Shown piece after piece: positions 25,510-31,056 of a DNA stretch of 64,000 nt; the first letter of the stretch is position 1; every line of letters starts with the position of its first letter. The stretch comes from Sedimentisphaerales bacterium (GTDB lineage Bacteria > Planctomycetota > Phycisphaerae > Sedimentisphaerales > SM23-30): the NCBI GenBank assembly GCA_963666285.1, contig OY762711.1, one strand, 5' to 3'. A program made the position numbers and the translations under genes. The notes beneath the pieces were generated by a model. The model ran no database searches and had not been told where the DNA came from. It was given only the letters and a program-made list of their open reading frames with translations.

Positions 25510-26559
25510 TTACTTCCAATGCACCGCGCCTATATCAGCACTCGTCCCGTCATCCCACTTATGCTCGCGGATCTTCTCTCCTATCATTTCTGCCAGCTCC
25601 ATTGCCATTACGGCATCTTCCGCCGAAACCTCCGGTCTGGACTTCTCCTGAACTGACTTGACAAACGCTTCCTGCTCCAGCCTCAACGGCTCGGAATCAT
25701 CTATATCTAAATTCTCAACTTTTATCATATTCGTCCAGTCAGCACCATTCAGCTCAAGCTCTCCTTCGGAGTTCATATGCTTGCGTATCTCCTGCAGCAT
25801 ATCAATATTAGCCGTCTTACTGATCACGGTCCCGGTCTTCTTGAAATAATCCAGCGACAGATAAGCATCCTCGCTGAATACCCTTACCTTTCGTTCTGTC
25901 TTTAACGCCAGACGCGATGCTGTCATATTTGCCACACACCCGCTCTCAAACACTATTCGCACATTCGCGATATCTTCATGTTTGCCGATTACATTCACAC
26001 CCGCAGCCGAAATACTTTTTATTGGCGACTTCGCCATCGATAGGATAATATCAATATCATGGATCATCATATCCAGAACCACGCCAATATCTGTCGAACG
26101 GAAAGTAAACGGTGAAATTCGCTGTGACTCGATAAACCTGGGCTTGAAATTCAATCGTTTCATCGCCTGGGCTACCGGGTTGAACCGTTCCGAATAACCT
26201 ACCTGCAATACGCAATTATTAGTCTTCGACAACTCCAGCATCTCACGGGCAACTTCCAGGGAATCTGCCAGCGGCTTTTCTACCAAAACGGCAATTCCTC
26301 TTTCCAGAAACGGCTTCGCTATCGAATAATGATGTTCGGTGGGAACCGAGACCGTTATAGCGTCAATCTGATCCAGCAGCTCTGCCGGATCAGAAAAAGC
26401 TGATGTACCATATTCGGATGCGACCTCTTTTGCCTTTTCAAGGTTCGCATCAACCACACCAACCAGCTCTACCTGGTCCATCTGGCTGTATATCCGGCTA
26501 TGCAGTTTCCCCATTCTTCCTGCACCAACCACGGCTGTTTTCACTTTATTTACGGTCAT
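25510..26559 (-). CDS. Gfo/Idh/MocA oxidoreductase (GnnA/WlbA-like UDP-sugar 3-dehydrogenase)
   Basis: GAGRMG Rossmann motif, LVEKP, QVGYSERFNP, DIGVVLDMMIHDID. Confidence 0.85.
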   Translation of the reverse strand: MTVNKVKTAVVGAGRMGKLHSRIYSQMDQVELVGVVDANLEKAKEVASEYGTSAFSDPAELLDQIDAITVSVPTEHHYSIAKPFLERGIAVLVEKPLADSLEVAREMLELSKTNNCVLQVGYSERFNPVAQAMKRLNFKPRFIESQRISPFTFRSTDIGVVLDMMIHDIDIILSMAKSPIKSISAAGVNVIGKHEDIANVRIVFESGCVANMTASRLALKTERKVRVFSEDAYLSLDYFKKTGTVISKTANIDMLQEIRKHMNSEGELELNGADWTNMIKVENLDIDDSEPLRLEQEAFVKSVQEKSRPEVSAEDAVMAMELAEMIGEKIREHKWDDGTSADIGAVHWK

Positions 26560-26994
26560 AATATGACTTTTCCGTATATTCGGTATAAAATATTGACAAT
26601 AAATGCATTACATAATATTAAACTATATATTTCAATGGAAATTAGCCCTGTTGTCAAGACAACTTTTCTCCCGTGTAAAATAAATTTTACTATCAGACTA
26701 TTATTCAATTTTTCTGAATTATTCTTTAATTATTCTCTTACACATTAGCCACTGATAAAACTATTTAACATGTCTTCAAATTTTCATCTCAACTGCAATA
26801 TGTTCGTTATACGCTAGCCTCATACCTCTGCTTATTTCTTATTACTTCCCCCTATCCCATTAACAGTTAAAAATGCCCGCTCGAGCCCGGTATAAATGAT
26901 TACACTATCATTATTTACCTTTCTGGCGATCGGGCAAGCTCATACACTCCTCCTGCAATTACTCAAAATAATATCAATCTTTTATGAAAAATAT

Positions 26995-27023
26995 TTGACT
27001 AAAACCAAAACAAGAGATATAGT
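26995..27023 (+). promoter_or_regulatory. Near-consensus sigma70 promoter
   Basis: TTGACT-N17-TATAGT. Confidence 0.7.
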
Positions 27024-27029
27024 TTGATA

Positions 27030-27170
27030 GTTGGTTAACAGATAACTGATGAATGTTGCAATTGCAAATGACCGAAAACCTCAGAGTATCTACAACGAGG
27101 TAGGTCGGTGCGGTGGTTGATCGATTGTAGGATCGTCACGCTAAACATTTACCGCGTAATGCGGTTTTGT
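27030..27170 (+). promoter_or_regulatory. Attenuator/riboswitch-like leader or small RNA
   Basis: Hairpin accga/tcggt plus acctc/gaggt (27071-27109); terminator accgc-gtaat-gcggt-tttt (27151-27168) mutually exclusive with gcggtggttg/catttaccgc; 23-codon ORF at 27049-27120. Confidence 0.45.
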
Positions 27171-27356
27171 GTGTTGGACGCTTGAGTGTTTGAGTGTAAG
27201 TTATGTATTTCTTTACACTTAACTCCTCAACATCTCCCACACCAAACTCCTGCGCGAGTTAATGTTTATAAATAGATGATATAAGATACTGTATATCAGA
27301 TATTTAGATGCTTTCCTGCACACCTGCAAACTACGATCTTGTGAGTATAATGACAG

Positions 27357-27835
27357 AATATGTACGCCTGTTAAGCCGGCTTCTGATGGCAAGGCTGTCG
27401 GTAAATAAATCGCCTGACAATGGCAATTTACGCAGGATTGCATATTGAGACGAAACCCGCCGTGAAAGAGACTCACCATCATGGCATGTGTCCCGGCAAA
27501 ACACCAGGAAATATACAACGGGGTTCGTAGGCTGCTGATTTTGTCGGCAATCTTTGTAAAATGCTTCTTCAGGCCGGCATTATCGACCATATCCGGAACT
27601 TTCCGGGCATGAGAAAGCAGCAAACGCGGCACAAGGAACGCAACGGAATAGGTTATTGTCATTATTCCGATTGCAAGAAATGCTTTGTACTGCCAAAATA
27701 GATTGAGGAATTGCCAGACGCAGTGTACTCTGCTTTTGGCCGGTTACCCTCGGTTATTACCGGGAAACCGCACCATATATCTTGTTTCTGGCATAACAAA
27801 GCTCAATGCCCGGAGAAGCTCACGCTATTGCAGCA
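27357..27835 (+). ncRNA. Candidate large structured non-coding RNA or long structured leader (unknown family)
   Basis: Starts 6 nt after TATAAT (27346-27351). Five consecutive closed domains at 27357-27446, 27450-27528, 27531-27621, 27628-27694 and 27703-27806. G-U pairs favour the + strand. No credible protein ORF. Confidence 0.55.
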
Positions 27836-28101
27836 CGATTCAGTTTTCTGAAACCAGCTAAAACTTAAAACTGAAAACAAAACAAAGAAAGGAAACACAG
27901 TTACCCGCAAAAACCTGATATACATGAATAACAAAAATAATCTTGTCACCTCAATGGTTGTTTTATAAACTATTCAACAGTAAACAACATGAATAGGATT
28001 TCCATATGTGAACCTTTGCGCGCGAGGCGTTTATATATTCTCATAATTTACATCAATACATATTTGGAAATTGTCTATCTAATTTTATAGGAAAGGCAGC
28101 C

Positions 28102-31056
28102 ATGAGATCTAATATTCAATTATTTAAAGCTCTATCTATCGTACTGGTTTCTGCATCTCTATGTACACAGCTTTACGCCCGAACCTCTGAATCTTTCGAC
28201 AAAGGCTGGCTGTTCGCTCGTTTCGGCGACACCCCTGCCGGTAAAGTTGACGAACCTGCCAATCTTGAAACTCCAAACCTTGACGATTCCTCCTGGCGAA
28301 AACTCAACGTCCCGCACGACTGGGGTATTGAAACTGATTTCATCGAAAGTGAAGAAAACAGTACCGGCAAACTCATGTTCTACGGCATAGGTTGGTATCG
28401 CAAACACTTCTTCGTTCCTGAATCTGACAATGGCAAAAGCTTTTTCATCCAGTTTGACGGTGTTATGAGCCACCCTACTATCTACCTGAACGGCCAATTA
28501 GTCGGCCAATGGGAATATGGCTACAGCTCTTTTGGTTTCGACCTTTCACCCTACATCAAATTCGGCCGGGAAAACGTCATTGCCGTCAGAGTCGATAACC
28601 CGCCCAAGTCTTCTCGATGGTATCCAGGCGGCGGCATATACCGTCACACGTGGCTCACTAAATCCGACCCTGTCCATGTCAGCCATTGGGGAACTTACAT
28701 TACAACACCGATAATCAGTAAAGATAACGCTACTGTTAAAATTGAAACTTCTATCGATAACTTATACAACACCGATGTCATTGTTAACATCAGCCATGTG
28801 ATCAAGGAAAAGAACACCGGCAAAGTCATAGCCGGCTCTTCCAGCCTTGAGTGTGTTGTCCCTATGGGCACTGAAACTAAATCCTGCACTCAGGATATCA
28901 CAATTAGCAATCCAAATTTATGGGATATCCAAAACCCGAACCTCTATATCGCTGAAACCAGGATTGCCAAAGATGGCTTTATTGTTGATACTTACCAATC
29001 TACTTTCGGTATTCGTTCTATCGAATGGAATCCCGACAAAGGCTTTCTGCTCAACGGTGAAATTGTAAAACTCAACGGCGTTTGTCTTCATCACGATCTC
29101 GGACCGCTCGGTTCGGCCGTTCACGACCGGGCTATACAGCGTCAGATTGAGATCATGCAGGATATGGGCGTCAATAGTATCCGTACCAGCCATAATCCGC
29201 CTGCCCCGGAACTTATCAAATACTGCGATGAGATGGGCATAGTCGTCCTCGACGAAATGTTTGACTGCTGGGAACGCGGCAAAACCGATAATGATTACCA
29301 CAAGTGGTTCAAAGACTGGTATGAAAAAGATATTACAAACCTTATCAAAAGAGATAGAAACCATCCTTGTGTTATCGCATGGAGCAGTGGTAATGAAATA
29401 CTGGAACAATGGAAAGGCAACCATGTCTCACAGATGCTTACCGACCTTTACCATAAACTGGAACCTACCAGGCTGGTTACCGCCGGATGCAATAGCACCT
29501 CCAGCTATAAAACTGGTTTTAATGAAACCTTCGACGTCTACGGCTTCAACTACAAGCCTCACCTGTACGCCGAATTTAAACAAATGCACCCCAACCAGCC
29601 GGTATACAGTAGCGAGTCTGCGTCCTGTATCAGCTCTCGCGGTGAATATTACTTCCCTGTCAGCGATGTTAAAAGCGAAGGGTTCTTTAATTTCCAGGTC
29701 AGCTCTTACGATCTCTATGCTCCCGGATGGGCAATGAAACCTGATATCGAATTCTACGGCCAGGATAAATATCCTTTCGTTGCGGGCGAATATGTTTGGA
29801 CCGGATTTGATTATATCGGCGAACCTACCCCGTATAACAATGACAAGACTCTGCTTATCAATTACCATACAGAAGAAGAACGTAAAGCCATTGAAGAAAA
29901 ACTAGCTAATATCAAAGGCAGCCCTTCTCGAAGTTCTTATTTCGGCATCGTAGACCTGTGCGGATTCAAAAAGGATAGATTCTATCTGTATCAGGCACGC
30001 TGGAGACCGCAGCTGCCTATGGCACATATTCTCCCTCACTGGAACTGGCCCGGCCGTGAAGGTGAAATTACACCTGTTCACGTATATACTTCAGGCGATG
30101 AAGCTGAACTGTTCCTGAATGGAAAATCTCTCGGCAAAAAGAAAAAAGCAATCATTGGTCAGGCTGAATCAAAAGAGATCATGCCAATCTCACTTTCCTC
30201 AAAGAAAACTGCCTCTGCTTCCTCTGTTCAGGAAGGCAACCTGGTAGCAAATGGCAACGACAACAATATGAAAACTCGATGGTGTGCAAGCAGTGAAAAC
30301 AAAAATGAAGCATGGACGACCGATCTCGGCAGTATCCAGCCCGTCAAAAGCTGTGTTATATACTGGGAAAAGCAGGCAGGCAACTACTCATATACCGTTG
30401 AAGTTTCTAATAACGAATCCGACTGGTCTGTAGTAGCAGAATCGAAATTCAAAGGCAAAAACAACTGCTCCATCCATACTTTCGATACAAATGCTCGCTA
30501 CCTGAAAGTCAATATCAATGACCTTAACGATAGCACCTGGGCCAGCTTCTACGAATGCCAGGTGTTCAATACCGATAAACCGGATATATACAAGGTTACC
30601 AGCCCCGAATACTATCGCCTGCGATGGGACGATGTCAAATACCAGCCCGGCACACTAAAAGCTGTTGCCTATAAGGATGGTAAAGTATGGGCAACTGACA
30701 CTGTCAGCACTACCGGCGAAGCTGATGCTGTCAAACTCTCACCAGACGCAACCACCATCAAAGCCGACGGTTCTGACCTCTGCTACATAACTGCTGAGAT
30801 CATCGATTCAAACGGCGAAATGGTGCCGCGCACAAACAATTTCGTCCAATTTGAAATCTCTGGTCCTGGCGAAATAATCGCTACCGGTAATGGGGACGCT
30901 ACCAACCCTGATTGCTTCAAAAACACTGGACGCAATGCCTACAACGGCATGGTACTGGCTATTGTCAGATCGATTGAAGGACAAAAAGGAACGATCACCG
31001 TTACCGCCAAATCTGAAGGGTTAAAAACTGATACTGTCTCTTTCAAGGCAAAATAG
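28102..31056 (+). CDS. Secreted GH2 beta-galactosidase-like glycosidase with inserted F5/8 type C (CBM32-like) domain
   Basis: Signal peptide; VPHDW, SRWYPGGGIYR, IRTSHNPP, WSSGNE, SSES, VWTGFDYIGEPTP; ASASS...NDNNMKTRW discoidin unit. SD GGAAAGG. Confidence 0.92.
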   Translation: MRSNIQLFKALSIVLVSASLCTQLYARTSESFDKGWLFARFGDTPAGKVDEPANLETPNLDDSSWRKLNVPHDWGIETDFIESEENSTGKLMFYGIGWYRKHFFVPESDNGKSFFIQFDGVMSHPTIYLNGQLVGQWEYGYSSFGFDLSPYIKFGRENVIAVRVDNPPKSSRWYPGGGIYRHTWLTKSDPVHVSHWGTYITTPIISKDNATVKIETSIDNLYNTDVIVNISHVIKEKNTGKVIAGSSSLECVVPMGTETKSCTQDITISNPNLWDIQNPNLYIAETRIAKDGFIVDTYQSTFGIRSIEWNPDKGFLLNGEIVKLNGVCLHHDLGPLGSAVHDRAIQRQIEIMQDMGVNSIRTSHNPPAPELIKYCDEMGIVVLDEMFDCWERGKTDNDYHKWFKDWYEKDITNLIKRDRNHPCVIAWSSGNEILEQWKGNHVSQMLTDLYHKLEPTRLVTAGCNSTSSYKTGFNETFDVYGFNYKPHLYAEFKQMHPNQPVYSSESASCISSRGEYYFPVSDVKSEGFFNFQVSSYDLYAPGWAMKPDIEFYGQDKYPFVAGEYVWTGFDYIGEPTPYNNDKTLLINYHTEEERKAIEEKLANIKGSPSRSSYFGIVDLCGFKKDRFYLYQARWRPQLPMAHILPHWNWPGREGEITPVHVYTSGDEAELFLNGKSLGKKKKAIIGQAESKEIMPISLSSKKTASASSVQEGNLVANGNDNNMKTRWCASSENKNEAWTTDLGSIQPVKSCVIYWEKQAGNYSYTVEVSNNESDWSVVAESKFKGKNNCSIHTFDTNARYLKVNINDLNDSTWASFYECQVFNTDKPDIYKVTSPEYYRLRWDDVKYQPGTLKAVAYKDGKVWATDTVSTTGEADAVKLSPDATTIKADGSDLCYITAEIIDSNGEMVPRTNNFVQFEISGPGEIIATGNGDATNPDCFKNTGRNAYNGMVLAIVRSIEGQKGTITVTAKSEGLKTDTVSFKAK

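Follow-up and report, generated by a model that had tools for sequence, protein, structure and literature searches.

A duplicated element of about 830-870 nt predicted to encode a large structured RNA in a Sedimentisphaerales bacterium

In the window, by which we mean the whole 64-kb stretch of DNA that was analyzed, we identified a duplicated block at 26961..27898 (plus strand) that is probably a stand-alone gene for a large structured non-coding RNA, with a promoter start, an end-paired fold, and loop pairing. The element is ∼830-870 nt long. A sequence-only reading of this DNA had placed a candidate RNA of ∼480 nt directly after a TATAAT. We found that the element begins ∼330 nt further upstream, at 27030, with its promoter at 26995-27023, and that its 5′ and 3′ ends are predicted to pair; the earlier unit covered only the 3′ 60% of it. 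The suggestion of an undescribed large non-coding RNA is therefore supported and was, if anything, understated, since the longer unit, with its own predicted promoter, is present twice and is not matched by any Rfam family.

Boundaries of the duplicated block, its predicted promoter, and its tail

When the genome was searched with the block, a second copy (copy B) was found at G000:C1:3744113-3745056, 95.6% identical to that in the window (copy A) over 944 alignment columns; an nhmmer search over the same genome gave no third copy. The two copies lie 709 kb apart in unrelated flanks, and identity breaks off abruptly at both ends. The common part is exactly promoter, body, and tail: it opens 34 nt before the −35 hexamer, and the copies part after 27898, 5 nt past a Shine-Dalgarno (SD) word. 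The duplication is not a finishing artefact, since both flank pairs and a two-allele bubble are present in Logan contigs of run X1, possibly the source sample.

The best promoter-like site within 26500-28200 is of the sigma70 type, TTGACT-17-TATAGT at 26995..27023 (plus strand), with 10/12 consensus matches. Copy B carries TTGACA-17-CATAGT, so both copies retain 10/12 matches and the 17-nt spacer. The scan of this region returned 7 sites against 5.2 expected and by itself is weak evidence. Based on the consensus and its conservation between the copies, we infer that transcription of this strand would start at G27030, seven bases past the −10 hexamer, and helix P1 of the predicted fold starts at this same base. 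The TATAAT at 27346-27351, which the sequence-only reading had put at the head of its unit, found no −35 partner in the scan and sits in a linker within the predicted RNA. The copies are unlike at 27 of the 829 body positions (3.3%) and at 10 of the 69 in the upstream part, 26961-27029 (14.5%; Fisher p=2.4e-4), and both hexamer scores and the spacer length are kept despite the upstream divergence. Selection, gene conversion, or recent duplication could each be the cause of the lower divergence of the body.

Following the body is an unpaired A-rich tail of 40 nt with AAAAC repeats (27859..27898, plus strand), terminating in AGAAAGGA (27886-27893). This word pairs over 8 bp with the 3′ end of the 16S rRNA of this genome at −11.0 kcal/mol, compared to −9.5 and −10.7 kcal/mol for the ribosome-binding sites of the two genes downstream of the copies, which encode a GH2 glycoside hydrolase and a DegT-type aminotransferase, respectively. 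No ATG, GTG, or TTG stands at the usual 5-8-nt spacing past the SD word in either copy, which confirms for both an observation already made on copy A, that an SD-like GAAAGGA occurs without a start codon. The A-rich tail may contain such a word by chance. If the element is a stand-alone gene, the tail is its sole visible functional handle, and it is also the main support for a leader whose gene was lost.

That alternative would make the element an orphaned giant 5′ leader. An ORF (for example, one for a protein partner of the RNA) would once have been expressed from the promoter and the strong ribosome-binding site, with the 830 nt between them forming an insulated structure that had a regulatory or translation-enhancing role, and would have been lost at the start codon before the block duplicated. 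RNAs that precede the gene of their protein partner include omega RNA before IscB/IsrB and OLE before oapA. We keep this reading because the shared sequence ends 5 nt past a strong SD match, where start codons usually sit (the modal SD-start spacing in this genome is 6-7 nt, in 68/2824 long ORFs). The A-rich unpaired run ahead of the SD word also resembles a translation enhancer, and no intrinsic terminator was seen 3′ of copy A by scan or of copy B by eye. Yet there is no reason why a geneless leader should have its promoter and body preserved, in both copies, better than the flanks, and no ORF remnant lies behind either one. The RRXRR domain of IscB/IsrB was not found in the genome, in a search that matched no control genome either. 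On balance, we regard an orphaned leader as unlikely.

Predicted fold and loop-loop complementarity

The 829-nt body of the predicted RNA (27030..27858, plus strand) is closed by pairing of its 5′ and 3′ ends. Its minimum free energy is −280 kcal/mol (z −6.88), with 0/20 shuffles as good, and lies 55 kcal/mol below that of its own shuffles. None of 46 control windows, drawn at random from the 435 long ORF-free gaps of the genome, was as stable; the best of them, at G000:C1:4205782-4207026, reached 42 kcal/mol below shuffles. The 3′ part seen earlier (27357-27895) folds at −168.5 kcal/mol, better than 100/100 dinucleotide shuffles (z −4.35), the comparison that had been proposed for it. Since its minus strand comes close (z −4.0), folding energy alone leaves the strand unfixed. 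Taken as 500-nt windows with a pairing span of ≤300, the same part gave z −3.0 and −2.6, and values of −3.0 or below occur in 9 of 63 long ORF-free gaps. The short-range windows are thus unexceptional while the full unit is matched by 0/46 controls, which implies that the stability signal resides in the long-range closure.

The minus strand also bears on whether the block is a protein gene, or a decayed one, whose folding is incidental. Both copies do have an open minus-strand frame, of 147 aa at 27219-27662 and of 195 aa in copy B, and its 147 codons are uninterrupted in each. However, the frame belongs to no Pfam family, and among 1.84 billion representatives only the frame of copy B and a low-complexity repeat protein match, so that the check for a decayed protein gene gave no protein signal. 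It also spans only half of the block and leaves the promoter and the end-to-end pairing unexplained, and we consider this explanation extremely improbable.

In the predicted structure of the RNA, three stacked helices, P1a-c, pair 27030-27049 with 27840-27858, and next comes P2, a 9-bp helix of 27054-27062 with 27827-27835; all have pair probabilities of ∼0.9 or more and occur in the folds of both copies. Inside this closure, the 5′ half is predicted to form a hairpin at 27069..27107 with a 14-nt loop, L3 (27083-27096), and a hairpin at 27113..27139 with loop L4, GAUUGUAG (27123-27130), which has competing folds and whose helix was imposed in our constrained model. A long irregular hairpin of ∼127 nt follows at 27142..27268 (z −5.8 alone, probabilities ∼0.9), and then one at 27269..27307 with loop L6, AGAUACUG (27284-27291). 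The segment 27340..27356 comprises UGUGAGU, which would pair with 27818-27824, and the single-stranded linker that holds the TATAAT. Behind it are D1 (27357..27446), which includes a hairpin loop UGACAAU (27415-27421), the three-way domain D2 (27450..27528), and the D3 hairpin (27536..27585) with a revised pairing of UGAU/AUCG and UGUCGGC/GCCGGCA. The 3′ core (27600..27816; z −5.9 for 27598-27818) is closed by a long-range helix, 27600-27613/27802-27816, and contains the D4 hairpin (27640-27674, loop 27652-27661) and the D5 arm (27683-27801).

This model keeps much of what had been read from the letters. Every quoted motif that we looked up was found in place or within a base or two, the GC contrast holds (46.8% in the block, 31-32% in the flanks), and RNAfold reproduces D1, D2, and the inner hairpins of D4 and D5. 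The arrangement as five independent back-to-back domains, and with it the partition of D3 to D5, does not survive. No helix of the molecule is stronger than 27600-27610/27806-27816 (−18.1 kcal/mol), which draws on tccggg and some of ctcaa and takes the place of the stems that were to close D3, D4, and D5. For the inner stems of D3, read as gtcg/cgac and aatgc/gcatt, RNAfold favours UGUCGGC/GCCGGCA instead. In one depth-2 contig of run X5, a G27585A change turns a U·G pair of the revised D3 into U-A and breaks gtcg/cgac.

We also asked how the differences between the copies fall on the fold, using 22 of the 27 body differences and leaving out the cluster at 27177-27181 with its gap. On the fixed model, the 22 changes break 7 pairs against 8.1 expected (P=0.37), so that pair preservation is not supported. 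With free refolding, the 22 point changes of copy B placed on copy A did better than 60/60 random placements, and the reverse placement, of copy A states on copy B, better than 55/60.

Several loops of the model are complementary to one another. In the unconstrained fold of copy A, AGUAUCU of L3 (27085-27091) can form 7 Watson-Crick pairs with 27284-27290 of L6. The overlapping CUACAA of L3 (27090-27095) is complementary to L4, which is in turn complementary to the linker CUACGAUC (27331-27338). The D1 loop UGACAAU and 27655-27661 of the D4 loop likewise allow 7 Watson-Crick pairs, which the unconstrained fold of copy B adds. Perfect 7-bp pairs between hairpin loops thus number one in copy A and two in copy B, and among refolded shuffles at least one occurred in 6/158 and at least two in 1/158. 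In the constrained model, with eleven helices imposed, there are 3 loop pairs of ≥6 bp (P=0.009 when loop bases are shuffled). Significance is marginal (P=0.04-0.06) when loops are compared more broadly, with all single strands, and limiting the statistic to hairpin loops was a choice made after the pairs had been seen. Loop complementarity is therefore above chance, and its use in kissing loops is suggested by analogy. Two loops with two possible partners each would suit a combination of intra- and intermolecular pairing, of the kind that PMC12286853 describes in GOLLD and ROOL.

Homologue searches and comparison with known large RNAs

A scan with Rfam 15 gave nothing at gathering level in the window and only chance matches, to E 10, across either copy, so neither copy has a family match. 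Together with a search for tRNA and tmRNA, which found neither in the 64-kb window, this bears out the earlier impression that hallmarks of tmRNA, RNase P, tRNA, and riboswitches are lacking. Using blastn, covariance models, and pattern scans, we found no homologue beyond this organism and near-identical strains. The search for covariation proposed in the sequence-only reading consequently turned up no distinct homologue and no covariation, since the known homologues are limited to that circle. By blastn, the element matched 0/60 relatives, 0/24 family genomes, and 0/400 genomes of the phylum. Within the class, 54 of 400 genomes had matches of 19-46 nt at E≤0.1 (best 6.7e-4), and none of the 29 loci checked by nhmmer extended beyond ∼60 nt. 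These genome sets overlap, and the searches may leave out records very near this genome.

Three covariance models were built from the two sequences. R1 (27589-27835) gave one weak match in 148 genomes of the order (E 0.014, within a 304-aa ORF), one in the 24 family genomes (E 0.28), 0/148 in the class, 0/4 in further records, and one weak, chance-level match (E 0.007) in 141 genomes from the phylum of a Verrucomicrobiae record. R2 (27060-27345) matched 0/148 genomes of the order and 0/148 of the class, and in its own genome only the two copies. R3 (27338-27595) gave one weak match in 148 genomes of the order (E 0.01, within a 560-aa ORF) and 0/148 in the phylum. Exact-pattern scans returned 28, 0, 0, 15, 1, 0, 1, and 0 loci from viral sequence, 39 from metagenomes, and 18 from GTDB, none of which extends past the pattern; with a single pattern for each large collection, such scans have little power. 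Against phage and plasmid sequence, blastn found two chance matches of 27-28 nt and nothing else. Because models from two near-identical sequences and word-seeded searches are weak for distant relatives, we describe the element as not found in relatives rather than absent from them.

Sequencing runs X4 and X5, from other studies, hold pieces of 151-175 nt with 3-6 differences at a depth of 2-2.4, which are too close and too thin to be used for covariation. Loose ends in run X3 at 27037 and 27867 begin or end with GATC and are probable library junctions. Among the listed runs that hold sequence of the element, none is an RNA run. The literature that we searched describes no such RNA in this lineage, and the supplements of PMC5737381 and PMC12286853 could contain a related motif.

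The pattern scans also brought up other small structured sequences. L097, L107, L121, and ∼17 marine metagenome loci share a conserved, closed stem-loop leader of ∼70 nt that follows a promoter and heads a small-gene operon, divergent from a terminase-like ORF (labeled by eye); it has no Rfam match and shares a 19-mer with the element that we judged to be chance. Two groups of small hairpin RNA-like sequences in phage and Lysinibacillus DNA (L079-L081, L084-L087, L093, and L133; L088, L090, and L091) both open with the same 16-mer and likewise lack an Rfam match.

Of the known large RNAs, GOLLD (RF02032) agrees with the element in size, the env-38 example being 833 nt (PMC12286853). The element resembles it in its 829-nt body with many multi-stem junctions and in its predicted loop-loop and loop-linker pairings. 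In contrast to GOLLD, neither copy matches RF02032 (to E 10) or has a neighbouring tRNA or prophage, the 5′ and 3′ ends pair and are followed by an SD-bearing tail, and oligomer formation would follow only from predicted loop complementarity. Across the genome, the best score of the GOLLD model was 10.7 bits, elsewhere, against a cut-off of 150, in a search where no control genome rose above the cut-off and a positive control was thus lacking. ROOL (RF03087) averages 581 nt (PMC5737381, PMC12286853). The element shares with it that it is large, ornate, predicted to be pseudoknotted, and sporadic among strains, but is ∼250 nt longer, lacks tRNA or phage context, and does not match RF03087 (by a genome search with no control match, with which cmscan agrees). 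With OLE (RF01071), it has in common a large closed form, long irregular helices, and kissing loops, here predicted. It differs in belonging to another phylum, in lacking an RF01071 match (again by a genome search with no control match, in agreement with cmscan), and in what lies directly behind it. The oapA gene is directly downstream of OLE; in place of a membrane-protein gene, the copies are followed by the GH2 and DegT-type aminotransferase genes.

Other known RNAs fit less well. Group II introns (RF00029) are of similar length, many ORF-less ones occur in this genome, and the element has a GUGCG at 27108; unlike them, it has no domain V/VI or AY end, its ends are predicted to pair mutually, and it has a predicted promoter of its own. 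Neither copy is among the 12 places that the RF00029 model picks out in the genome, and a motif scan was empty. RNase P RNA and tmRNA were rejected, as neither matches here and the canonical genes are at C1:2722187-2722563 and C1:933820-934175; a tRNA was rejected as the window has none. For Y RNA, the TROVE (Ro60) domain was not found in the genome, in a search that matched 2/14 controls, and the element is far larger. HEARO and omega RNA gave no Rfam match, and the RRXRR search for their protein partner was equally empty in controls. For MISL RNA, the observations are that the name does not occur in the papers examined and that R1 gave just the one weak, chance-level match among the 141 genomes from the phylum of a Verrucomicrobiae record.

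Taken as a stand-alone gene, the element would be transcribed from the sigma70-type promoter at 26995-27023 starting at about G27030. The 5′ end of the transcript would pair with 27827-27858 to give a closed, multi-junction body of 829 nt, a prediction with strong statistics. Pairing of loops L3-L6, D1b-D4, and L3-L4 or L4-linker would then pack the molecule or join several, as in GOLLD, ROOL, and OLE. By analogy, the element would most likely work like GOLLD or ROOL as a compact or oligomeric accessory RNA without being a member of either family, and it may found a new class of large bacterial RNA. Such an RNA would be an abundant scaffold or oligomer with the unpaired 3′ tail as an exposed handle; more speculatively, the 8-nt anti-SD match, which no start codon follows, could provide a docking site for idle 30S subunits. 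Ribosome binding has precedents, since GOLLD was reported to bind ribosomes in pull-downs (PMC12286853), OLE is linked to ribosomal protein bS21 (PMC12054373), and SprF1, a small type I antitoxin, has a purine-rich ribosome-binding stretch at its 5′ end (PMC8938821). By a similar conjecture from complementarity, the purine-rich single-stranded tail of the element could compete with mRNA loading. We nonetheless find ribosome docking by the tail, on its own, rather unlikely. Decidedly unlikely is the fuller proposal of a new giant (∼870-nt) ornate class, GOLLD-sized and unrelated to GOLLD, in which kissing-loop self-assembly and an SD tail holding 30S would make an RNA-only ribosome sink. A closed 830-nt RNA that is predicted to form kissing loops and has no link in sequence with GOLLD, ROOL, or OLE is a ready target for cryo-EM and probing, albeit one known from a single organism and near-identical strains, and if its tail docks ribosomes, a large ornate RNA gains a concrete mechanism.

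Genomic setting of the two copies

Copy A lies between a divergent Gfo/Idh/MocA oxidoreductase gene (25510..26559, minus strand) and the GH2 gene (28102..31056, plus strand), and copy B between a divergent ORF of 2239 aa and the DegT-type aminotransferase gene. Both are co-oriented with the next gene, which in each case has its own ribosome-binding site ∼180-210 nt further on, and the nearest flanks are metabolic genes without prophage. That both copies point into a downstream gene with no terminator between, and lack the tRNA or prophage context of GOLLD and ROOL, speaks against a stand-alone gene. It would instead suit a cis-acting leader, whether for anti-termination or riboswitch-like, of the present GH2 and DegT genes, and a leader of the GH2 gene had been offered in the sequence-only reading. 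This is unlikely because copy B precedes the DegT gene, both downstream genes have their own ribosome-binding sites, and in genus relatives the orthologues of the oxidoreductase and DegT genes are preceded by different neighbours, with the element missing from the 1.5 kb examined. The two genes are moreover unrelated, the DegT gene has a promoter-like sequence resembling that in the element-less relatives, and neither a terminator, an SD-sequestering switch, nor a riboswitch family match is evident. Overall, a cis-acting leader appears very improbable.

A non-autonomous mobile element, or its RNA part (a degenerate intron or an RNA derived from an insertion sequence), carried without benefit to the host, could also account for a near-identical pair of copies whose loci differ from one genus relative to the next. 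The element is missing from 24/24 family genomes in our searches, and mobile repeats and group II introns abound in this genome. With both copies aligned with their flanks, however, we saw no terminal inverted repeats or target-site duplication, and there are only two copies, which removes the MITE identity that had been raised as a check. Neither copy has a group II domain V/VI, although the same search finds 12 introns elsewhere, or any similarity to the group II introns of the genome. Lastly, the upstream promoter was copied too, and an RNA intermediate would not carry it. We therefore hold a mobile origin to be improbable and retain a stand-alone RNA gene as the favored reading.

A MITE-like palindromic repeat lies beside copy A at 26853..26950, outside the element, and is absent beside copy B. 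It belongs to a family of ∼105 nt with ends TATAC...GTATA that occurs at ∼57 other places on G000:C1 (36 blastn and 60 nhmmer matches, two of the latter being reverse-strand repeats of the same places); the copy at 26853-26950 is without the usual right end. The chromosome also carries near-identical group II introns of ∼720 nt, at G000:C1:1407250-1407973 and at least seven more places (e.g. 2351425-2352148, 3633818-3634543, and 4935259-4935982), with 3-4 further copies in a related lineage. They are too short for a maturase ORF and are inserted at start codons, one base past the ATG behind an SD-like site, and we take them to resemble 'start-stop' introns. Nine tRNA genes on the minus strand occupy ∼3 kb at G000:C1:5226832-5229866, typical of a phage or island tRNA array; GOLLD and ROOL, which often sit in such arrays, have no match there. 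Contigs C2, C3, and C4 are three replicons of 65-66 kb, mutually 75-82% identical, each with a ∼100-nt repeat that is also found many times on the chromosome. The two 16S genes (G000:C1:1183649 and 1451092) are far from the single tRNA-Ile/Ala pair at 3851309-3851670, which suggests unlinked rRNA operons.
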